Positions 41,068-50,186 of a stretch of DNA of 64,000 nt are shown here, one piece after another (within the stretch, counting starts at the first letter, position 1; every line of letters begins with the position of its first letter). The notes below the pieces were generated by a model. The model saw nothing but the letters and a program-made list of their open reading frames with translations. It was not told the DNA's origin and ran no database searches. The stretch is from Bacillota bacterium. GTDB taxonomy: Bacteria > Bacillota > JAAYKD01. The DNA is taken from positions 192,001 to 256,000 of the forward strand of contig OY762825.2 in NCBI GenBank assembly GCA_963666425.2. Direction: 5' to 3'. The translations under genes were made by a program, and so were the position numbers.

Positions 41068-41175
41068 GGTTCGTACGTACTCAATCCGCAATTGCTGTCT
41101 TCCAGCCGTTTACATCTGTTAACTTGGCATCGTTTCAAGTTGACTCTTGTGCTTATATTTGAGCGAAACGAATGT

Positions 41176-42078
41176 TTAGAAAATATCTGGCAGCAGATAA
41201 GTCAGCCAAAAGCTGCTAATAAAGGAAGCAGCATTGGCTGTCAGGGCATAAAGAATGGGGTTGCTTTGCAATAATCCATTCTTTTTCTGACAATACCTGA
41301 AGAGATAAAAATAAACTGTTGCTTCAATGCAGCAAACCAATATTTCCAGGAAAACGAAAGCAAGTAAAAAAGCAACTTGCCCTCGATAATAATGAATGAA
41401 ACTGAGCAGAAGATTCAGGATTGTCTGAGTCACTAGATTCGTCAGGAGAATGATCCACAAATGAAGTTTTGACTGATAATGAAAAAGTAAGGCAATACCG
41501 ATCTCCAATAGAATCGCGATTCCGCTTAGGATCAGCAATGACACAATTTCTGATTGAAAACTGTAATTATTTTCTGATCTGACGGTCAAAATCTCAGCAG
41601 CCGTTCCGTTGGGAGTGAGGGCAACTGCCGCTTGATAATTACTGTCAAAAGCATAACGCTCATAAGGTCCACTCACAGCAAAAGAATTCGAAGCCGGAAA
41701 ATAAATTAGGATTTTGAAAACCGTCGGTGGATAGTTACCCCATTGAAAGGATTGGTTATTGCTGCATTTGCCGAAATATTGCAGAAAATAAAAGCCACCC
41801 TGATCGCGATAAGCCAAAAATCGTTGATAGATATCGTAATCCAGATTCCCTGGTCGATAATAAGTTTTTGTGTAGCCATCGGTCAAGGCGCTGTAGGGCC
41901 CGGTTGTGTCTGTTTCGGAGAGTAAGGTAACATAATAAACGACATTCTCCAGTCCGCTAAACTTAATGACAATCGAGGGCTTCTGGCCTACATCGGCATA
42001 TACTATTCCTGAAAGCAATAGACAGCAAAGGAGCAGAAAAAGCAGCAGCATACAGGTTAGCAGACCGCGTTGTTTCAT
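41176..42078 (-). CDS. Conserved-type hypothetical membrane protein (signal peptide, extracellular domain, about 4 C-terminal TM)
   Basis: 300-aa ORF with GGAG RBS; hydropathy pattern. Confidence 0.75.
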   Translation of the reverse strand: MKQRGLLTCMLLLFLLLCCLLLSGIVYADVGQKPSIVIKFSGLENVVYYVTLLSETDTTGPYSALTDGYTKTYYRPGNLDYDIYQRFLAYRDQGGFYFLQYFGKCSNNQSFQWGNYPPTVFKILIYFPASNSFAVSGPYERYAFDSNYQAAVALTPNGTAAEILTVRSENNYSFQSEIVSLLILSGIAILLEIGIALLFHYQSKLHLWIILLTNLVTQTILNLLLSFIHYYRGQVAFLLAFVFLEILVCCIEATVYFYLFRYCQKKNGLLQSNPILYALTANAASFISSFWLTYLLPDIF

Positions 42079-42273
42079 TTTGCCTCTCCCCTTTCTCCGA
42101 CTAACAGTTTTATCGTCTTGACAAAGATTATAGCATAACCAAGGCTCGAAAGAAATTCAGAAACTCAAAAAAAAGGAGTTTGCGAAATAAATAATCTTTT
42201 GTGATATCATCACAGATAATAGTTCATCTAAACTGTAAAATATAATAATTACTCGATATGCGGAGGTGGAATC

Positions 42274-42690
42274 ATGAAAAAATCTTTGACACTGTTCTTC
42301 CTACTTTTCCTTGCTGCCTTGCTTGTCTCATGCAGTGCCTCTTCAACCGATCATACAGCAGGCTATCAGAAAATCAACGCCCAAGCCGCTAAGGAGCGCA
42401 TCGACAGCCAAGATGAACTGATCATCGTTGATGTTCGCACGGAAGAGGAGTTTCAGGTAAAGCATATTGAAAACGCCATTTTGATTCCAAATGAAACAAT
42501 TACGACCGAAAAACCTGCTCTCTTACCGGATTTTGATGCAGAAATTCTCATCTATTGCCGCTCCGGTAATCGCAGTGCCGAGGCAGCAGCAAAATTAGCG
42601 AAATTGGGTTATCGTAAAATTTATGATTTCGGCGGGATCATCGACTGGCCTTATGCTACAGTAAGTGAACTGAAAAGCAGCACGCATTAG
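42274..42690 (+). CDS. Rhodanese-like domain lipoprotein
   Basis: Lipobox LVSC; VDVRT.EE, HIENA, YCRSGNRS, DFGGI.DW. Confidence 0.9.
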   Translation: MKKSLTLFFLLFLAALLVSCSASSTDHTAGYQKINAQAAKERIDSQDELIIVDVRTEEEFQVKHIENAILIPNETITTEKPALLPDFDAEILIYCRSGNRSAEAAAKLAKLGYRKIYDFGGIIDWPYATVSELKSSTH

Positions 42691-42766
42691 TTTAGCAAAA
42701 AAGCACCTCCCGAAAGCATCTGTGATCGGGAGGCGTTTTGATGTACCGTTTTTGTTTCAAGTTGAG

Positions 42767-43513
42767 CTATGTAATCTGATAGGTGGCAATTTCGACTAAG
42801 CCGGATTTTGATTTTTCAACCTCAGTCAGTTGACGTTCAAATTGATATCCTTTATATTGGAGGGCAATTTCTAAAAAGCAAAGGCTGATTCCCAAATCAA
42901 TTGTATTAAAATAGCCAAGGAAACTGACAGGAATGAACGACCTGATCTTGTTGCTGCGGTACACCTTGATCTGCTGCTTGTCACTCACAAATCTCCAGCT
43001 TTGTGTATTCATGGCGCTGGGAGCCAGCCGAACTGCTTCCATCACATCGGAATCAAACTCACCTTGCCAGATTTCCTCTTTGCTTTTACGTTTAAACTCT
43101 GAAATGTCCCGGCGAAAATCCTGTTGACTGGACTTACCAAAGGCCAGCATCATCACATATTCCAGCCCATCCAGCATCTTTTGCTTTGTCTTTGCCAACC
43201 CATACCAACAGGCGCCAATTTCCTGAGCGGTGAAAAAGAGATCCATTTGTTCCAGCAGGAAACCTGCATTTAACAAATAATGAGGTTTCTTTTCGCTGTA
43301 AATCAGGAGGCAGTATTCACCGTATTTCGCTGTGGTAAGAGCACGGCTGACAATTTCAAAACGGACTTTGATCTCACTGTCCAGAGGGATCAGTTGAGTC
43401 AGAGCATGCTTAATATGAACCAATTCCTCAGCTTTCAGAGAAAGTGCCGCATCAAATTTCCGGATAGATTTTCTTTTGAAAATCATGTTGTAGAGTTCTT
43501 TCAAGATGTTCAT
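42767..43513 (-). CDS. Nitroreductase family protein
   Basis: RKSIRKF, G.CW.G, RLAPSAMNTQSW. Confidence 0.85.
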   Translation of the reverse strand: MNILKELYNMIFKRKSIRKFDAALSLKAEELVHIKHALTQLIPLDSEIKVRFEIVSRALTTAKYGEYCLLIYSEKKPHYLLNAGFLLEQMDLFFTAQEIGACWYGLAKTKQKMLDGLEYVMMLAFGKSSQQDFRRDISEFKRKSKEEIWQGEFDSDVMEAVRLAPSAMNTQSWRFVSDKQQIKVYRSNKIRSFIPVSFLGYFNTIDLGISLCFLEIALQYKGYQFERQLTEVEKSKSGLVEIATYQIT

Positions 43514-43792
43514 TTCCTTTCAGCGATCTTCATAGATGGTTTTGCTCAATCATATCTTCCGATAATTTCTTGGCATTTGGTATAAATCAGATTTACTGGG
43601 GATGACTTTAGAATAAATGCATGTTGCTCTTAGATACTATACTATGCAAGCAAAGATTGCAAAACAAATTTTAGTTGGTGACGTAGAGATCATGGTATTA
43701 CAAAGATAATCTCGTATGTAACAAAATCCGAGTAGAGTATTAAAAGAATATTGGAGATATAAGACGGTAGGAACATAGAAAATTACTATCTA

Positions 43793-43844
43793 CAAAAAAG
43801 GAGCCAATCAAAACTTATCTTTCAGCTTTGATTGGTCCTTTTTG
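43793..43844 (-). terminator. Terminator downstream of amtB
   Basis: CAAAAAAGGAgCCAATCAAA...TTTGATTGGTCCTTTTTG. Confidence 0.6.
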
Positions 43845-43875
43845 TAATTCAATCTATAAAACCTGTAATGACCAT

Positions 43876-45093
43876 TTATTCTAAATGGTAAGCTTCCTCG
43901 TGATGGATAGAAATATCCAAACCGTTCTCTTCTACCTCTTTTGACACACGCACTGGCAAAAAACGATTGACCACATACAAAATAAGTAATGTCACGATAA
44001 AAGAATACAGTGAAATAATCAGCACGCCTACTATTTGCATTAAAAATTGGTGAATGTCTCCACTGATTAAACCTCCAATTCCATTGATGGATTTTATAGC
44101 AAAGACTCCAACCAAAATACTACCTAAAATACCACCGACACCATGAACTCCCAATACATCCAGAGCATCATCCAGATCAAGCTTGATACGAAGTTGAACA
44201 GCATAATAACAGACAACTCCAGCAATTAGTCCGATTACGGCAGCTGCCCAAGGTTCGACATAACCTGCTGCCGGAGTGATGGTCGCAAGACCCGCCACCG
44301 CCCCGGTTAAGGCAGCTAAAAAGCTTGGTCTTTTATCCTTTATCCAGGAAATGCTCAACCACGTCACCATGGCCACAGCTGCTGCAATATTGGTATTAAC
44401 AAAAGCAATTGCTGCGATAGAATTTGCTGCCAATGCTCCTCCGGCATTAAAACCAAACCAACCAAACCAAAGTAATGCGACTCCTAAAGCTACATAAGTA
44501 ATATTGTGTGGTTCATGATCCTGATGAGAAGAAATACTTCTTTTACCTACAAATAACACAGATGCCAGCGCAGCTAATCCAGCACTTGCATGAACCACCA
44601 TTCCGCCTGCAAAATCAACTACCCCCATTTGCTGCAGAAAACCGCCACCCCATAACCAATGTGTAATCGGAATGTAAATCAAAAAACTCCAGCCAATTAG
44701 AAAAAGCAAATAACTTTTAAAGTTTACCCGATTGGCAAATGCTCCTGTAATCAGAGCAGGTGTTATCACAGCAAACATTTGCTGATAGCTAAAAAAGGTA
44801 ATAAATGGAATGGTTGCACCATAACTGGAATTCGGTACTAAACCAACGCCATTTAAAAAAGCATATTTCAGACTGCCAATCATACCGAAAATATCGGGAC
44901 CAAATGCAAGTGAAAAACCAACACAAAACCAAATAATTGTTACTACGCCCATAGAAATAAAACTCTGCATCATAATGGTTAAGACATTTTTTTTAGAAAC
45001 CAAACCACCATAGAAAAAAGCCAGCCCTGGTGTCATAAGGCAAACCAGTGCAGCACAAAGTATGATAAATGCGGTATCCCCGCTATTAATCAT
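43876..45093 (-). CDS. amtB: Ammonium transporter (stand-alone)
   Basis: MTPGLAFFYGG, QMFAVITPALITGA, HWLWGGG, DFAGGMVVH, WFGWFGFN, DDALDV..VHG, RVS.E.E..GLD. Confidence 0.96.
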   Translation of the reverse strand: MINSGDTAFIILCAALVCLMTPGLAFFYGGLVSKKNVLTIMMQSFISMGVVTIIWFCVGFSLAFGPDIFGMIGSLKYAFLNGVGLVPNSSYGATIPFITFFSYQQMFAVITPALITGAFANRVNFKSYLLFLIGWSFLIYIPITHWLWGGGFLQQMGVVDFAGGMVVHASAGLAALASVLFVGKRSISSHQDHEPHNITYVALGVALLWFGWFGFNAGGALAANSIAAIAFVNTNIAAAVAMVTWLSISWIKDKRPSFLAALTGAVAGLATITPAAGYVEPWAAAVIGLIAGVVCYYAVQLRIKLDLDDALDVLGVHGVGGILGSILVGVFAIKSINGIGGLISGDIHQFLMQIVGVLIISLYSFIVTLLILYVVNRFLPVRVSKEVEENGLDISIHHEEAYHLE

Positions 45094-45170
45094 TAGAGTC
45101 GCTTCCCTTCCCTTAATTGGAGATGTTGTACGATCTCTCTACTTCTAATTTAACCTGATAGAACCAATTC

Positions 45171-45217
45171 ATTATAAAAAAAATAATGGTTTATGGAAAT
45201 ACCATAAAACCATTATT
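45171..45217 (-). promoter_or_regulatory. amtB promoter region with palindromic candidate response-regulator site
   Basis: AATAATGGTTTATGG-aaata-CCATAAAACCATTATT; TATAAT on the minus strand at 45176-45171 with a poor -35. Confidence 0.5.
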
Positions 45218-45269
45218 CTCACCGGAAGTAACCCTTATTATTCTGTTTATTTTTCTTACCAGTTGATCT

Positions 45270-45911
45270 CTAGATCTCAATTATATGATTACGTACTGCA
45301 TAGAGTACAAGCTCCGTAATGTTTTTGAAATTACTCTTTCTCATGATGCTTGCCCGATGTGTTTCCACCGTTTTTATTGAAATCATCAGCAAATTTGAAA
45401 TTTCTTTATTACTATAACCTTCTGCGATTAATTTTAGTACTTCTCTCTCTCTAGCAGAAAGATCATTACCTTTTTTTTCATTTTCCAGAAAGCCATGCAG
45501 TAAAGTTGGAGCGAGTAAGGAAGAAACATAGATTTTATTCTCCATCACGTCATGAATGGCCTGGATTAATTCTTCCAAAGCACTTTCTTTCAGTACATAC
45601 CCATTTGCACCATTCATAAAAGCTTCAGCTACGAGTTCTTCATTTTTAAACATGGTCAAAAAGATGATTTTTAAATGGGGGAACTGCTTTCTTAGATGTT
45701 TCGCTGCATCAATCCCACTTCTTTTTGGCATAGAAATGTCTAAAATAAGCACATCAGTAATTACTTTCGATAGCTCTTCTTCCACTACAATCCCATCTGC
45801 TGCTTCTCCAACCACTTCAAAATCGCTCTCTTGTTTCAAAAGCATGATTAAGGCATCCCGCAATATTTTGTGGTCATCGGCGATGTAAATTTTAATTTTA
45901 TAATTCATCAA
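45270..45911 (-). CDS. NarL/NreC-type response regulator (REC + LuxR HTH)
   Basis: ADDH, LILDISMP, FLT, YVLK; LSAREREVLKLIAEGYSNKEI..KTVETHR. Confidence 0.95.
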   Translation of the reverse strand: MMNYKIKIYIADDHKILRDALIMLLKQESDFEVVGEAADGIVVEEELSKVITDVLILDISMPKRSGIDAAKHLRKQFPHLKIIFLTMFKNEELVAEAFMNGANGYVLKESALEELIQAIHDVMENKIYVSSLLAPTLLHGFLENEKKGNDLSAREREVLKLIAEGYSNKEISNLLMISIKTVETHRASIMRKSNFKNITELVLYAVRNHIIEI

Positions 45912-47802
45912 TCAGAGGTACCTCCACAACAACTCTTGTTCCTTTGCCTATAACACTAAAAATCTGAAATTTGCCTCCAAGCATTTTCACTCTATCACTC
46001 ATGGATGGTATTCCCATGCCATATGCTTGATTCTCCGTCTGGAAACCTACTCCGTCATCTATAATCTGAAAGTTATATAAGCTATGTTCACTATCTGCAC
46101 CAGCCAAAATAAGGACGTTTTGCGCTTTTGCATGTTTAACAATGTTGGTCAACGCTTCTTGAATAATTCGATAGATATTCAGGGTTATCATTTCATCAAA
46201 AAGAGGAATCGGTTTGTTTATTTCTAAACTACAATGTATAGACCCCATTTTATTCAAATCCCTTGTCATGGATTCTAATCCACCAATTAAGCCGTTTGAC
46301 TTCAGTATTTCTGGTTTTAGGTTATTCAATACAGCTCGAATTTCATCTATGGAGTTATCTGTTAAAACAGCTGCTTGCTGCGTTTTCTGCAAAAGTTCTT
46401 CCTGTTTGATTTCTGTTTTTGGAGTAAGCAATTGCTTATTTGTTATACCTAAGATAATCTTTAGCGCTGCAAGACTTTGTCCGACTCCATCATGTAAATC
46501 TCTAGCGAGTTTTGTTTTCTCTTGTTCTTCTGTTACTGTTAACAAACGCGTCTGTTTGCGTAATAAATCATTCTTTTGCTTAATTTCAGTTTCATATTCG
46601 CTGATTTCCAGATATTTTTCCCACGAATAAATATCAGAGAATTCTACAATATTGAGCCCTTTTTGTTCTTCCGCTTCCGTAACACGTAAACCAAAACTAT
46701 GATCAATGATTCGAAACATGAGATAAGCTGTGCCAAAAACCCAGCAAAAATTCACTGTTAAGCCGAACAATTGAATCAAAAATTGACTAAAACGATTTGC
46801 GGCACGCATAAACTCCACATTTATAAAAAAAGGAAGCAATAAGGTACCCGCCAAGCCGCCGAATAAGTGGATGGGGATCGCTCCAACTGCATCATCAACA
46901 CCCATTTTATCCAGAATGTGTTTTGATAAATGAACGAACATACCGGATAGAAATCCTATCATTAAAGCTGCCATCGGCTCCAAGTAACATGATCCCGCTG
47001 TAATTGCGACCAACCCGCCCAGCACTCCATTAAATATAGCGATCAAGTAGCCTCCATTTCTCAACAGAAGCATGTTCATCACCAATGCTCCGATCATTCC
47101 GGAAGCAGCTGCGAGATTCGTATTGATTAAGATCAAACCAACCTTTTCGTTAAAAGCAAGCAGACTTCCGCCATTAAAACCAAACCAAGCAAACCAAAGA
47201 ATAAAAACACCTAAGACAGCAAAAGGAATATTTGATTTGCTGTTTTTCATTTTGATTCTCTTCCCAACAACAATGGAACCGGCTAACGCGATAAATCCTG
47301 CTGTCGTATGAACAACAGTAGCACCGGCAAAATCAATAAAGCCCAAAGCAGAAAGCCATGTTCTTTGATTTAAAAACAGACCACCCCATACCCAATGCCC
47401 ATAAATAGGGAAAATAACAATCGCACTGATAAATGCAGCAATCTGTAAAGGGATCAGTTTTGTCCTTTCTGACATAGATCCTGCAAATATGGTGACTGCG
47501 GTTGCTGCAAACATTAATTGAAAAAACACAAAAGCATACCCCAATGAAGAAGCTCCAGAAATACCAGTAAAAAACCAGAAGCCATTGCCGATGAATCCAT
47601 AAAATGTTCTTCCAAACATCAAGGGAAACCCAAAAATACAAAAGCCAACCGTTGTTACCATGAAGGTTAATAGATTTTCTATCGCAACAAATATCACATT
47701 TTTGCTTTGAACAAATCCTACTTCATAGCATATAAATCCCGCTTGCATAAAGAAAACAAAACAGCCACAGATAATAATCCAAAGCATATTTATATTTTGC
47801 AC
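45898..47802 (-). CDS. Ammonium transporter-histidine kinase fusion (Amt + HisKA_3 + HATPase_c)
   Basis: First ~390 aa are Amt (FFMQAGF, FQLMFA, HWVWGG, DFAGATVVH, WFGFNGGS, DDAVGAIPIH). Then EKTKLARDLHDGVGQSL, RIIQEALTNIVKHA, DDGVGF, GMG. GTG start after GGAGG. Confidence 0.93.
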   Translation of the reverse strand: MQNINMLWIIICGCFVFFMQAGFICYEVGFVQSKNVIFVAIENLLTFMVTTVGFCIFGFPLMFGRTFYGFIGNGFWFFTGISGASSLGYAFVFFQLMFAATAVTIFAGSMSERTKLIPLQIAAFISAIVIFPIYGHWVWGGLFLNQRTWLSALGFIDFAGATVVHTTAGFIALAGSIVVGKRIKMKNSKSNIPFAVLGVFILWFAWFGFNGGSLLAFNEKVGLILINTNLAAASGMIGALVMNMLLLRNGGYLIAIFNGVLGGLVAITAGSCYLEPMAALMIGFLSGMFVHLSKHILDKMGVDDAVGAIPIHLFGGLAGTLLLPFFINVEFMRAANRFSQFLIQLFGLTVNFCWVFGTAYLMFRIIDHSFGLRVTEAEEQKGLNIVEFSDIYSWEKYLEISEYETEIKQKNDLLRKQTRLLTVTEEQEKTKLARDLHDGVGQSLAALKIILGITNKQLLTPKTEIKQEELLQKTQQAAVLTDNSIDEIRAVLNNLKPEILKSNGLIGGLESMTRDLNKMGSIHCSLEINKPIPLFDEMITLNIYRIIQEALTNIVKHAKAQNVLILAGADSEHSLYNFQIIDDGVGFQTENQAYGMGIPSMSDRVKMLGGKFQIFSVIGKGTRVVVEVPLIDEL

Positions 47803-47888
47803 ATCTTAATCCTCCATAGAATATTCATCGTTATTCGCATCCTCTGATGAAAAACATGCAAGCTTTTTAATTTTCTAAATACAGAATG

Positions 47889-48089
47889 CTATACTGTATT
47901 CTGTATTTGATTCATCTTCCAGTAATAGCCATGATTTGCCAGCAACTGCTCATACGTACCACTTTCTACGATCCCGCCATCTTCGATAACAAGAATAAGA
48001 TTCGCATGCCGTATGGTAGACAAGCGATGTGCTACGGCAATAATGGTGCGCGATCCAGCCAGTTGGTTGACAAGATCCTGAATATGCAA
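47889..48089 (-). pseudogene. C-terminal fragment of an ABC exporter ATPase
   Basis: RTIIAVAHRLSTIRHANLILVIEDGGIVESGTYEQLL; no Walker A or TM domain upstream. Confidence 0.8.
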
Positions 48090-48464
48090 TTCCTTTTAAA
48101 ATTAAGGCAGACATACGGTGCAATAGCAAGATAAGTTTAAAGCGAATCAGTTGATCAATGGAATACATTTCTCGGTCTCCTGGTTTTGTTATGGTATTTT
48201 TTAAAGCAAGTATGACATACTATCTTACAATGTCAAGCTGTTTTCAATCAAAAATCGGTTCGGCTTCTGACAGACTATCGCGTAGACATAAGTATTAGAA
48301 ACTATATTTTTCAGAAAAGAAAATCATTAATATTTTTTTTGAAAAAACACACTTTTGTCACAGTTATTTGATATGATAGGGTTGCAGTGGGTTCCAGTGC
48401 GGATGTTTGCGCACAGGAAATCCAGATAATCTCCACTGCAAATAAGAAAAGGAGGTTTTTGTAA

Positions 48465-49082
48465 ATGAAAAAAATTACTCGGATTTTGCTCGTCGTAACG
48501 ATGATCCTGGCTGTCAGCAGCGGAGCTTTCTTCGTCTTTGCAGCATCCAATTACACCACACCTGCCGAAATCGTTGCAGGCTTGACCGGACGAAGTTTAG
48601 AGAGTGTGATCGCAGAGCATGATGAAACCGGTGATAATTACGGTCAAATCGCCGCAGCTGCCGGTCTGCGCAATGAGTTTATTAATGAAATGGCATTGCT
48701 TCGCCAAGATAAAATTGCCGCTAAAGTAGCTTCGGGAGACATTACCCAGGCACAAGCCGATGAAATCCTCACCCTGCTTGCCGCCCATCAGGCGCTGGGT
48801 AATGGTTTAGCTGCCAGAATCAGCCAGAAGTTAGGTTTGGGTCGCGGTATGATGAATGGCTTTGGCCAAAATATCGAAGTCCTCAAAGAGAAGATCGCTG
48901 CGAAAGTAGCTTCCGGCGCTTTAACCCAAACCCAGGCTGATCAAATTCTTGCTTTGATTGCCGAACGCCAGGCGAATTTCGCGGACGGCAATCCTGGAAC
49001 AGCGAATCATTCACGTATTGGTCTGAGGACTGATTTACGTCAGAGTATCGGCCGCATCTTGAACAACAAAACTAACCGCTAA
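48465..49082 (+). CDS. Secreted helical protein, DUF2680-like
   Basis: Signal peptide, TPAEIVAGLTG, two copies of KIAAKVASG.(I/L)TQ.QAD; AGGAGG RBS. Confidence 0.7.
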   Translation: MKKITRILLVVTMILAVSSGAFFVFAASNYTTPAEIVAGLTGRSLESVIAEHDETGDNYGQIAAAAGLRNEFINEMALLRQDKIAAKVASGDITQAQADEILTLLAAHQALGNGLAARISQKLGLGRGMMNGFGQNIEVLKEKIAAKVASGALTQTQADQILALIAERQANFADGNPGTANHSRIGLRTDLRQSIGRILNNKTNR

Positions 49083-49107
49083 ACTTCTGCGGAAGCACAT
49101 CTAATGT

Positions 49108-49148
49108 GAAACCCCTATGCCTGAATTTTCAGCAGGTATAGGGGTTTC
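49108..49148. terminator. Bidirectional terminator
   Basis: GAAACCCCTATGCCTG...CAGGTATAGGGGTTTC. Confidence 0.7.
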
Positions 49149-49172
49149 TTGTTCATCAGAGCAACTTAGTTT

Positions 49173-50186
49173 TCACATCTCATCGTTTTTTTGTATACAA
49201 TGAACATTCTCTTTATTAAAAGATAAATAAACGTGATCATTGACCTTTCGCTGGCTGGCAGCGGAGTTGCCCGATGTATCCACCATCACGGTCTCCCCTG
49301 CCGACAAAACCAGATATCTTGAACTAAACCCCAAATGCTCTTTTTGCAGGATCATACCCGGCATACCGTTTTCGGCAAAATCGATATTCTCTGGGCGCAG
49401 CAACAAAGTTTCCTTGTCATGGCAAACGAATTCTCTGCCTAAAACTTGAGCGATTCCCTGCTGACCATAGAAAAAATTAGCTCGACCAACAAAGTCAGCC
49501 ACAAACTCATTAATCGGCTGTTGATAAACTGCATTAGGCGTATCCGTTTGCCAAATGCGTCCTCGATCCATTACCGAGATACGATCCGCAATACTCATCG
49601 CTTCTTCCTGGTCATGCGTTACGTATATAGCGGTGATTCCTAAATTTTTCTGAATCTGCCTTAAATTGGAGCGCATCGTCACCCGCAGCTTTTCATCTAA
49701 ATTGGATAAAGGTTCATCAAAAAGCAAGACATCCGGTTCTGTGATCAATGCGCGTGCCAGCGCAACCCGCTGCCTTTGTCCTCCCGATAACTCCTGAATC
49801 TGCCGGTGTTCCATTCCTTTCAACTCCATCATGGTCAGGATGCGTTCTGTCTTTTGTTGTATTGCCGCTTTTGGCAGTTTTCGTATCTGCAAACCAAAAA
49901 TAATATTTTCATAAACATTCAAATGCGGAAATAAGGCATAGCTTTGAAAAACCATAGAAGTATTGCGCTTTTGTGCGGGTAATTGCGTAACATCCTGATC
50001 GTTAAAGAAAAGTTTGCCTGTTGTCACCGGAATTAAGCCCGCAATCATACGCAGCAGGGTGCTTTTGCCACAACCGGAAGGTCCCAGTAAAGCCATCATT
50101 TCTTTGTCATAAATAGTCAGCGATACATCTTTTACTGCTTCGGTTTGGTCGTATTTCTTACTGATTGCTTCAAGATTAATCTTCAT
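49173..50186 (-). CDS. ABC importer ATP-binding subunit (FbpC/PotA-like)
   Basis: GPSGCGKS, VFQSYALFPH, LSGGQRQR, FDEPLSNLD, VTHDQEEA. Confidence 0.93.
   Translation of the reverse strand: MKINLEAISKKYDQTEAVKDVSLTIYDKEMMALLGPSGCGKSTLLRMIAGLIPVTTGKLFFNDQDVTQLPAQKRNTSMVFQSYALFPHLNVYENIIFGLQIRKLPKAAIQQKTERILTMMELKGMEHRQIQELSGGQRQRVALARALITEPDVLLFDEPLSNLDEKLRVTMRSNLRQIQKNLGITAIYVTHDQEEAMSIADRISVMDRGRIWQTDTPNAVYQQPINEFVADFVGRANFFYGQQGIAQVLGREFVCHDKETLLLRPENIDFAENGMPGMILQKEHLGFSSRYLVLSAGETVMVDTSGNSAASQRKVNDHVYLSFNKENVHCIQKNDEM

Follow-up and report, generated by a model that had tools for sequence, protein, structure and literature searches.

A predicted self-contained ammonium-uptake module in a Bacillota bacterium: an Amt-histidine kinase fusion, a NarL-type regulator and amtB

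Described Amt receptors and related circuits

Two Amt proteins of solved structure are regarded as ammonium receptors rather than transporters. Ks-Amt5 (kuste3690) of 'Candidatus Kuenenia stuttgartiensis' (PDB 6EU6) is described as an Amt-like domain that continues C-terminally into a histidine kinase, with neither a HAMP nor a PAS domain between the two parts and with no glnK adjoining its gene (PMC5764959). Its kinase is reported to change phosphorylation in response to NH4+ only when the protein is full-length, and three bulky residues of helix 1 (F27, Y30 and F34) are described as closing the transport path (PMC5764959). Sd-Amt1 of Shewanella denitrificans (PDB 8QJ3, 8QJ4 and 8QPF) instead signals through a HAMP-GGDEF output that makes use of cyclic-di-GMP, and its organism also carries a separate transporter gene, amt2 (PMC11152129). 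The same account proposes a receptor signature for the N1/N2 ammonium sites, QX6EX15NX2D[F/T]X54-60TX2[S/T], and its authors state that the roles of the two studied receptors in signalling networks remain for study (PMC11152129).

The closest parallel in circuit logic is the UhpABC-UhpT system of E. coli. In this system, a transporter paralogue that is ~30% identical to the transporter senses the external substrate, and a HisKA_3-type kinase then acts through a NarL-family regulator to induce the transporter gene (PMC7607045). In canonical amtB-glnK systems, the regulated gene encodes an ordinary assimilatory AmtB with a PII partner, under PII and TnrA/GlnR or NtrBC control. The earlier note on this DNA knew of no characterised circuit with an Amt-HisKA_3/NarL/amtB architecture, and a literature search likewise found none.

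The sensor kinase, its regulator and the transporter

The cassette described here lies in a 64,000-nucleotide stretch of DNA from a Bacillota bacterium (the window), where it consists of three genes followed by a terminator:

45898..47802, minus strand: Amt-HisKA_3-HATPase_c sensor kinase, 634 aa, GTG start (ORF list, Pfam)
45270..45911, minus strand: NarL/LuxR-family response regulator, 213 aa (ORF list, Pfam)
43876..45093, minus strand: stand-alone assimilatory-type ammonium transporter AmtB, 405 aa (Pfam, NCBIfam)
43794..43843, minus strand: intrinsic terminator after amtB, at the end of the cassette (stem 43835-43804 plus a T run)

The reading of the sensor gene as a single-frame fusion of an Amt protein and a HisKA_3 kinase is borne out by the ORF list and by Pfam, which places Ammonium_transp (PF00909) at residues 7-389 (E 4.8e-90), HisKA_3 (PF07730) at 428-498 (E 3.8e-12) and HATPase_c at 542-630 (E 5.3e-9). 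The H-box LARDLHD, which had also been claimed, is present in the translation. Within the protein, the receptor-type Amt domain takes up residues 1-389 and the CA domain residues ~497-630. The two are joined by residues 386-459, which an AF2 model (pLDDT 81) predicts to be one long helix running into the DHp helix with His437, and the linker between Amt domain and kinase is strongly conserved. The absence of a HAMP or PAS domain is shared with Ks-Amt5, as is the C-terminal kinase, although the kinase classes differ (HisKA, PF00512, in Ks-Amt5 and HisKA_3 here). The same Amt+HisKA_3+HATPase_c architecture, for which the earlier note had suggested a search, is found in 113 full-length homologues. 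Furthermore, the gene order across 42000-49200 is identical on a 48-kb contig that a second study produced. Together, the homologues and this independent contig dispose of the concern that the fusion is an assembly artefact.

The regulator contains a Response_reg domain (residues 8-119) and a GerE domain (151-205), and its start overlaps the kinase stop codon (45898-45900) by 14 nt (TTG at 45911) or 11 nt (ATG at 45908), in agreement with the overlap noticed earlier. The kinase residues H437, N553, D582, G584, G595 and G597 are invariant among 64 sequences, and the receiver translation contains the acidic pair D12/D13, D58, T86 and K108. We take these positions to be the H-box His and the N- and G-box residues of the kinase, and the acidic pocket and conserved Asp, Thr and Lys of the receiver. 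Kinase boxes, receiver pocket and GerE helix-turn-helix are thus all found in the pair. The best NCBIfam match of the kinase part is UhpB (119.6 bits against a cut-off of 408), and the best matches of the regulator are PRK15369, MctR (164.9 against 300), MadR and NarL (126.1 against 250), all under their cut-offs, with UhpA also among its matches. Because all NCBIfam scores fall far below the cut-offs, the pair does not belong to a named equivalog (UhpB/UhpA, NarX/NarL, LiaS/LiaR or MctS/MctR), and the likeness to the Uhp system is one of analogy, not membership. The Uhp proteins also differ in kind, as sensor and transporter there are of the MFS type and UhpC contacts UhpB as a protein of its own; here the sensor is an Amt and forms one chain with the kinase.

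The stand-alone AmtB contains Ammonium_transp at residues 8-402 (E 1.3e-120), scores above the curated amt cut-off (TIGR00836, 446.4 bits against 343.3) and has Af-Amt1 (362 bits) and EcAmtB (302 bits) as its best matches in a PDB sequence search. In alignment with EcAmtB, its Phe gate, Trp, Asp and both His residues are retained and Gly occupies the S219 position. The protein is ~33% identical to the Amt domain of the sensor. These two are the only Amt genes in the genome. The presumed target gene is of the same ordinary assimilatory kind as in canonical amtB-glnK systems, but its PII partner is missing. The absence of glnK/PII beside amtB had been pointed out before, and it extends further: no PII gene lies downstream of amtB in seven related loci by Pfam, and a PF00543 search of the whole 98.5%-complete genome gave no match.

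The pore and binding site of the fused Amt domain

A PDB search with the sensor domain gave Ks-Amt5 (6eu6, 315-316 bits) and Sd-Amt1 (266-269 bits) ahead of Af-Amt1 (167) and EcAmtB (133). Foldseek returned the same ranking order with 6eu6 at the top (TM 0.91, 42% identity), making Ks-Amt5 the best match in both sequence and fold. By these scores and those of the free AmtB, the fused Amt is closest to the solved receptors and the free AmtB closest to assimilatory transporters. Sd-Amt1 belongs to the same Amt subfamily as the sensor (266 bits).

The Amt/Rh fold of the sensor domain includes the selectivity filter, the Phe gate and the twin-His pore. Alignment to E. coli AmtB (chain 1xqe) pairs F107 with F98 of the sensor, W148 with W139, D160 with D157, H168 with H165, F215 with F209, S219 with S213 and H318 with H312, where the E. 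coli residue names are those we presume for these pore positions. All seven are kept, which confirms the earlier claim that the Phe gate, W148, D160, S219 and both pore His have equivalents here, and F98, W139, D157, H165, F209 and H312 show little or no variation across the 113 family members. The bulky F27/Y30/F34 of Ks-Amt5 align with F23/Y26/F30, which are conserved as F in 105, Y in 99 and F in 99 of the 113 members. Asn258 is the counterpart of Asn269, the exit-blocking residue in the exit funnel of Sd-Amt1.

The binding site is less faithful to the solved receptors. The N1-type ligands E27, N43 and T104, a Glu/Asn/Thr set shared with Sd-Amt1, are kept in 110-112 of the 113 members, and Phe47 corresponds to the Phe that Sd-Amt1 has at the T51 position of Ks-Amt5. 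The sensor fits the proposed signature at five of its seven positions (Q20, E27, N43, F47 and T104) rather than in full. At the N2 Asp position (D50 in Ks-Amt5, Asp48 in Sd-Amt1) it has T46, and the family has T in 98, N in 12, S in one and D in none of the 111 members with a residue there. At the final S/T position (T112 in Ks-Amt5) it has A107, where the family has A in 79 members, S in 30 and G in four. In addition, Tyr119 of Sd-Amt1 is replaced by Leu119, and Lys44 of Sd-Amt1 by Glu42; this Glu is found in all 111 members with a residue at that position and takes the place of the Lys or Arg of the solved receptors. The changes at T46, A107 and Leu119 suggest that the binding mode may differ, or that the ligand is bound otherwise than in the solved receptors.

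As judged from its sequence, the cassette has a receptor of a known kind, in a variant form that had not been characterised. A bolder proposal, which we put forward tentatively, is that the receptor represents an AmR subclass of its own, whose site has been remodelled and probably takes a single cation; in it the N2 Asp and the Tyr have been lost and Glu42 is invariant. Such a receptor would drive a dimer-type HisKA_3 kinase from a trimeric Amt through one unbroken helix, and the cassette would be a portable, PII-independent unit with its own receptor, relay and promoter, able to bring regulated ammonium uptake to lineages that lack Amt.

Origin, upstream region and proposed circuit

Comparison with a genome of the same genus (G010) defines the boundaries of the inserted DNA:

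42752..47888, no strand assigned: 5137-bp block absent from G010, containing a nitroreductase-like gene and the cassette (G010 comparison)
47889..48089, minus strand: ABC exporter remnant, last 66 codons (NCBIfam, G010 comparison)

Contig C30 of G010 matches the window at 41175-42751 and then resumes at 47889-48071 only ~108 bp further on. The earlier note had described the block as richer in AT than its surroundings and as adjoining a broken ABC gene. Consistent with this, the GC content of the block is 38.0% (2.9th percentile of 3130 windows) and that of the cassette (43876-47802) is 37.9%, whereas the genome as a whole has 47.2%. For the 66-aa ORF, matches to ABC exporters are confined to their final ~60 residues (for example, HepA 549-610 of 610). 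In G010 the ABC gene is intact: its open frame runs for 560 aa or more and ends at the homologous point, and relative to this gene ~1.8 kb has been deleted from the window. Furthermore, no Amt was found in any of the nine other genomes of the class, and the kinase is 74% identical to that of an Anaerovoracaceae MAG, whereas the RpoB proteins of the same pair are only 64% identical. The horizontal acquisition suggested by the earlier note is therefore supported more strongly than the sequence alone had allowed.

The conservation of the gene neighbourhood, which it had also proposed to check, proved complete: the order kinase-regulator-amtB is kept in 18 of 18 related loci (10/10 full-length loci from genome contigs and 8/8 from a phylum sample), over kinase identities of 47-88%. 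In one of them (L006), the regulator gene and amtB lie apart, with 3 kb of genes on the opposite strand between them, and the element upstream of amtB has remained with amtB. In the window, this region contains the following features:

45171..45238, minus strand: candidate amtB promoter/operator (promoter-like match, and spacing found in 16/18 loci)
45233-45238, minus strand: hexamer 1
45211-45216, minus strand: hexamer 2
45194-45199, minus strand: -35-like hexamer TTTCCA
45171-45176, minus strand: -10 hexamer TATAAT
45182..45217, minus strand: 36-nt hairpin-forming palindrome plus T run, overlapping hexamer 2 and the -35/-10 spacer

The spacing hexamer-16 nt-hexamer-11 nt-(-35-like)-17 nt-(-10-like) recurs in 16 of the 18 amtB upstream regions, with weak -35-like hexamers. 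The hexamer ATA[AC][AG]G occurs 42 times in the 18 regions, compared with 7.1 in shuffles and six in 2200 nt upstream of kinase genes, counts that overstate independence because the loci are related and that come from the very sequences on which the motif was defined. The tandem pattern has a single copy in the 3.2-Mb genome, at amtB. This phased tandem hexamer is, post hoc, a candidate site for the regulator; together with the synteny, it favours the claim that the three genes form a unit. The palindrome is unique in the genome and present only in the closest clade, where it folds in 7/7 members (-6.7 to -25.2 kcal/mol) with compensatory and G.U-type changes, and in the window and five relatives the hairpin and T run lie directly 3' of the regulator gene. 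It is likely the terminator of the kinase-regulator transcript. The G.U-type changes indicate selection at the RNA level, which could alone explain part of the motif conservation in the closest clade; clades without the spacer palindrome still have the phased hexamers.

These observations, all of them comparative, are best accommodated by a self-contained, horizontally acquired ammonium-uptake module in which a receptor kinase activates amtB through the regulator, a reading to which we assign a probability of roughly 0.6. The Amt-like domain would sense ammonium as a receptor of the same kind as Ks-Amt5 and Sd-Amt1 and would not itself transport. NH4+ would enter by the conserved selectivity filter and twin-His pore and be bound within the membrane at E27, N43 and T104. 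The resulting movement would pass along the continuous cytoplasmic helix to the DHp domain, altering phosphorylation of His437, and the phosphoryl group would be passed to Asp58 of the translationally coupled regulator. The regulator would then bind both phased sites, whose centres lie near -65 and -44 relative to an assumed transcription start, and activate amtB. Sensing at the membrane, as the earlier note had it, is plausible because the fused Amt groups with two solved receptors and not with transporters; the claim that the system switches on its own transporter is read from the position of the sites. A trimeric Amt would have to be coupled to a normally dimeric DHp domain, a geometry that counts against the proposal.

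It is unlikely that the fused Amt is instead a true transceptor, the term used in the earlier note, that both conducts and signals, so that the signal reports flux rather than binding. Every pore residue is kept, and with the N2 half of the diverting site lost, ammonium may escape trapping of the Ks-Amt5 type. Some Amts in the receptor-signature cluster are also characterised transporters, for which a possible dual transport/receptor role is raised by the authors (PMC11152129). However, Ks-Amt5 and Sd-Amt1 keep all pore residues as well and are reported to give transient currents only (PMC5764959, PMC11152129), the three bulky helix-1 residues and Asn258 are present, and a separate transporter is always encoded alongside. 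As these nearest solved relatives keep the whole pore without translocating (PMC5764959, PMC11152129), receptor and transceptor are not told apart by sequence. A circuit of opposite sign, in which the phosphorylated regulator represses amtB at plentiful ammonium, thereby substituting for the GlnK plug and avoiding futile cycling, appears quite improbable. The genome has no PII for a post-translational block of AmtB, and a protein bound at the closest-clade palindrome, which spans the -35 to -10 spacer, could occlude RNA polymerase. That palindrome is absent in other clades, however, and its changes look RNA-selected, whereas the conserved hexamers lie upstream of and abut the weak -35-like hexamers, with predicted centres at the usual position of an activator. 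Only a slight chance is given to the regulator having its real targets elsewhere, with the adjacency of amtB historical, or to the upstream element being solely a terminator of the kinase-regulator operon. The location of the hairpin would suit a terminator, and binding of the regulator at amtB is a prediction; against this stand the unbroken synteny, the hexamers of the hairpin-less clades, the lack of a second genomic copy of the tandem pattern and the element of L006, which accompanies amtB in a divergent intergenic region that has no transcript end requiring a terminator.

Under the activating circuit, receptor and relay would replace GlnK/PII and the global nitrogen regulators and could consequently work after transfer to a lineage without Amt or canonical PII. 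Sensor, regulator, candidate operator and target gene all lie within 4 kb, and regulator and target adjoin the sensor, whereas neither is named for Ks-Amt5 or Sd-Amt1 in the accounts consulted (PMC5764959, PMC11152129). The circuit works, or at least was kept, in an organism without PII or another Amt. Owing to this compactness and this host, work in a heterologous host could directly address three questions: what signal an Amt-type receptor conveys, at what ammonium concentrations it responds, and how a trimeric sensor drives its kinase. The altered binding site supplies natural variants with which the N1/N2 model could be tested, and the transfer into an Amt-free lineage suggests that nitrogen uptake can spread along with its own control.

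Organization and conservation of the cassette

The cassette consists of three genes on the minus strand, and as a module it is real, intact, and conserved. The earlier note described it as a fusion ORF, an overlapping REC-LuxR regulator, and a separate amtB, and the ORF and Pfam evidence bears this description out. The genes and the remnant upstream of the kinase are as follows:

45898-47802, minus strand: sensor kinase, 634 aa (Pfam: Ammonium_transp 7-389, HisKA_3 428-498, HATPase_c 542-630)
45270-45911, minus strand: response regulator, 213 aa (Pfam: receiver and GerE/LuxR)
43876-45093, minus strand: stand-alone Amt (amtB), 405 aa, above the NCBI curated amt cut-off
47889-48089, minus strand: ABC exporter remnant, 66 codons, similar only to the C-terminal end of ABC exporters

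The start of the regulator overlaps the kinase stop by 11-14 nt, a spacer of 176 nt separates the regulator from amtB, and a terminator-like hairpin lies 3' of amtB.

Searched against 5.8 billion proteins, the sensor kinase has at least 120 homologous clusters, with identities of 51-88%. Except for two truncated entries and P0050, a 789-aa protein, these have the Ammonium_transp, HisKA_3, and HATPase_c domains, the architecture for which the earlier note had suggested a search. The named clusters belong to Bacillota (Anoxybacterium hadale, Clostridium aminobutyricum, Desulfosporosinus, Alicyclobacillaceae, and Anaerovoracaceae). P0050 (75% identity) carries Amt, HisKA_3, receiver, and GerE in a single chain, in which the kinase and regulator genes may be fused or may have been joined by a frameshift or assembly error.

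Gene neighborhoods, which the earlier note had also proposed to compare, are uniform as well. The order kinase-regulator-amtB on a single strand is found at all 10 loci with a full-length relative in a species-level genome collection, and at all eight further loci that came from sampling 400 other genomes in the window's phylum. Two of the loci (L089 and L011) score identically and probably represent a single record, giving a total of 17 or 18 loci with this order. The family-level search gave six genomes and the order- and class-level searches the same 10 genomes; the extra loci come from the phylum sample only. Across loci the free AmtB is more conserved than the sensor (62-80% versus 47-74% identity), and none of the seven loci examined has a PII gene downstream of amtB.

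The same Amt subfamily occurs with other outputs in other phyla, as PAS-HisKA, GAF-HisKA, and methyl-accepting chemotaxis fusions. Amt-PAS-HisKA-HATPase is encoded at L013:4085-6535 (Anaerolineaceae), Amt-HisKA-HATPase at L014:413-2881 (Aggregatilineales), and Amt-GAF-HisKA-HATPase at L053:3069-5606 (a Deltaproteobacteria MAG). Receptor-type Amt domains joined to the chemotaxis domain PF00015, which are candidate ammonium chemoreceptors, are found at L015:764-3043 (Halalkalibacter oceani) and L026:6001-8247 (a Leptospiraceae MAG).

The receptor-type Amt domain and its coupling to the kinase

Searches against PDB sequences separate the two Amt proteins of the cassette. The fused domain scores 315 bits with Ks-Amt5 (6eu6) and 269 bits with Sd-Amt1 (8qj3), the two ammonium receptors of solved structure, versus 167 bits with the assimilatory Af-Amt1 and 133 bits with E. 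coli AmtB. The free AmtB scores 362 bits with Af-Amt1 and 302 bits with E. coli AmtB. Since the sensor ranks receptors first and the free AmtB ranks transporters first, the cassette pairs a receptor-type with a transporter-type Amt; the two are ~33% identical. Foldseek with the AF2 model (pLDDT 81) leaves the ranking unchanged, with 6eu6 on top (TM 0.91, 42% identity). By NCBIfam, the free AmtB reaches 446 bits against the curated amt cut-off of 343, and the fused domain falls below it at 322 bits.

The earlier note held that the fused domain retains the pore residues of the transporter, and every residue that it named is found in the alignment: F98, W139, D157, H165, F209, S213, and H312 align with F107, W148, D160, H168, F215, S219, and H318 of E. 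coli AmtB. The free AmtB (43876-45093) has Gly at the Ser219 position and keeps all the remaining pore residues. Ks-Amt5 also has all of these pore residues without translocation, its pore is closed by the bulky helix-1 residues F27, Y30, and F34, and ions are diverted to an intramembrane site formed by Q24, E31, N47, D50, T51, T109, and T112 (PMC5764959). The sensor has all three bulky residues, as F23, Y26, and F30. Its Q20, E27, N43, and T104 are identical to the Ks-Amt5 ligands and F47 is as in Sd-Amt1, but D50 and T112 of Ks-Amt5 are replaced by T46 and A107. Overall, five of the seven positions of the published N1/N2 receptor signature are found in the sensor.

The site also differs from that of Sd-Amt1, whose N2 pair Asp48/Tyr119 corresponds to Thr46/Leu119 in the sensor. 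Lys44 of Sd-Amt1, which forms a salt bridge with the N1 glutamate in the OFF state (PMC11152129), is replaced by Glu42. Among 113 aligned full-length relatives, the N2 Asp position is Thr in 98, Asn in 12, and Ser in one, and is never Asp; each of the 111 members with a residue there has Glu42 and Asn43. Judged from these alignments, the Amt-HisKA_3 proteins seem to form a receptor subclass of their own, in which the N1 half of the site is retained. This site may bind one ion, or Glu42 may serve as a displaced second acidic ligand. The family may already be placed in one of the sequence clusters of PMC11152129.

The stretch from the last Amt helix to the H-box is among the best conserved of the protein, with invariant columns in the alignments, and the sensor contains neither a HAMP nor a PAS domain. 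AF2 models a single helix (residues 386-459) that is continuous into the DHp helix with His437; the local pLDDT of 50-68 is expected for a monomer model of a dimerizing region. The kinase H, N, and G boxes are invariant across 64 sequences, and the receiver of the regulator, read from the translation, has D12/D13, D58, T86, and K108 at the usual functional positions. In NCBIfam, the kinase part comes closest to UhpB, MctS, LiaS, and NarQ and the regulator to PRK15369, MctR, MadR, and NarL, with every score far under the equivalog cut-off.

The region upstream of amtB

Two overlapping features lie in the spacer between the regulator and amtB:

45199-45171, minus strand: promoter-like pair TTTCCA, 17 nt, TATAAT
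45182-45217, minus strand: 36-nt palindrome plus T run, overlapping the promoter-like pair and unique in the genome

In the six closest loci (L003-L007, L010), substitutions within the palindrome are compensatory or of the G.U type and preserve it, with folding energies of -6.7 to -25.2 kcal/mol over the window and these loci. Such substitutions speak for an RNA hairpin, which would most simply be the terminator of the kinase-regulator transcript. At L006, three opposite-strand genes split the regulator from amtB and the upstream element remains with amtB, and more distant clades have no such hairpin; a terminator alone is thus insufficient as an explanation. The palindrome as the sole operator of the regulator was dropped because of the compensatory and G.U-type variation in seven relatives and its absence from other clades. 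A TnrA/GlnR box was likewise rejected, as the element does not fit the consensus when compared by eye and the inner palindrome varies between close relatives. A search of 43500-48600 against Rfam with E up to 1 gave nothing relevant, indicating that the amtB leader is no known riboswitch or leader.

A short hexamer is common to all clades (ATAAGG-like in the closest clade, ATACAG- or ATACGG-like elsewhere). It occurs 42 times in 18 amtB upstream regions versus 7.1 in shuffles, and six times in a control of 2200 nt upstream of kinase genes. When anchored on two hexamer copies 22 nt apart, 16 of the 18 regions have a common layout (hexamer, 16 nt, hexamer, 11 nt, weak -35-like element, 17 nt, -10-like element), and a TAnnnT hexamer stands at the exact offset in 15 of these 16. 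The 3.2-Mb genome contains a single copy of the tandem pattern, at amtB, and none of its reversed control. Because we estimate a chance expectation of ~1-2 matches per genome, the weight rests on the location of the match and on the lack of a second site. Since the motif was derived post hoc from sequences that are related to each other, it is a candidate operator. If transcription starts ~7 nt past the -10 hexamer, the two putative sites would be centered near -65 and -44, an activator-type arrangement. Reading by eye suggests that each 18-nt site is an imperfect inverted repeat.

Origin of the cassette and the proposed circuit

The genome (98.5% complete, 6.85% contamination) contains exactly two Amt genes, both within the cassette, along with one glutamine synthetase and a glutamate dehydrogenase. 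It has no PII match, extending to the whole genome the earlier observation that glnK/PII is missing beside amtB. Neither an Amt nor the fusion is found in the nine other genomes of the class (10 in the collection); seven of these nine give weak PII-like matches, none of them in the window's own genus. A same-genus genome without the cassette (G010, RpoB 96% identical) is collinear with the window on both flanks, and its rhodanese-like gene lies within ~108 bp of the 3' end of an intact ABC gene (at least 560 aa). Compared with G010, 5137 bases (42752-47888) are additional in the window's genome, and ~1.8 kb of the ABC gene is missing from it. The block has a GC content of 38.0% versus 47.2% for the genome (2.9th percentile of 3130 windows), and GC3 of the three cassette genes is 0.31-0.34. 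In an Anaerovoracaceae MAG the kinase shows 74% identity and RpoB only 64%, and in a phylum-mate the values are 53-54% for the kinase and 65-73% for RpoB. An AT-rich block, a broken ABC gene, and horizontal acquisition had been proposed from the sequence; the first two stand, and acquisition is the best reading of the base composition, the intact ABC gene in G010, and the mismatched identities.

The cassette shares one 2.9-Mb contig with rpoB and is therefore not a binning error, and a 48-kb contig from a second study covers 42000-49200 in identical arrangement, the two sequences showing 50 differences and a single 1-nt gap. A search for flanking repeats (42400-48400) found only an Amt motif common to both paralogues, and no transposase or integrase is present among the ORFs of the window. 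The block also contains a TM1586-type nitroreductase-like gene (42767-43513; GC3 0.48 versus 0.31-0.34 for the cassette), which has no relative in 88 fetched loci (L003-L082, L085-L092); this gene probably does not belong to the cassette unit and may have arrived separately. Within 47889-48168, a promoter-like site and an ATG in a different frame lie upstream of the ABC remnant, and the near-identical strain of run X3 lacks 1 nt at 48015, as would fit a pseudogene in decay. A 205-aa ORF (48465-49082) with a hydrophobic N-terminus, internally repeated segments, and weak, sub-threshold DUF2680 similarity is conserved beside the ABC gene in G010. At 3.2 Mb, the window's genome is larger than that of the same-genus relative (2.1 Mb, RpoB 96% identical).

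The module is an uncharacterized variant of an already known kind of receptor. Among its closest known proteins, Ks-Amt5 has a kinase of the HisKA class, with neither regulator nor targets named in the accessible sections of its description, and Sd-Amt1 has a HAMP-GGDEF output. The closest known logic is that of UhpABC-UhpT, in which a paralogue ~30% identical to the transporter senses external substrate and drives UhpB/UhpA to induce uhpT (PMC7607045). Searches of the open-access literature yielded no publication on the Amt-HisKA_3 architecture and no characterized Amt-HisKA_3/NarL/amtB circuit, in agreement with the earlier note.

We give a probability of roughly 0.6 to a circuit in which the receptor kinase reports external ammonium to its dedicated regulator, which would in turn activate the neighboring amtB. 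The fused Amt could also be a true transceptor, a proposal compatible with this circuit; it keeps the pore residues of a transporter together with the bulky residues of a receptor, and we consider it unlikely. The same circuit with the regulator as a repressor is somewhat less likely again given the predicted activator-type spacing. That the regulator serves other targets appears very improbable, with the tandem pattern confined to amtB and the order of the trio constant.

What is distinctive here is the complete circuit, the altered binding site, and the transfer into an Amt-free lineage. In Ks-Amt5, low NH4+ steeply raises phosphorylation and high NH4+ lowers it, a response confined to the full-length protein (PMC5764959). 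If the family behaves like Ks-Amt5, it may be speculated that expression of amtB would be restricted to conditions with ammonium present yet scarce, and, equally speculatively, such expression would suit a cell that has no PII to close AmtB.
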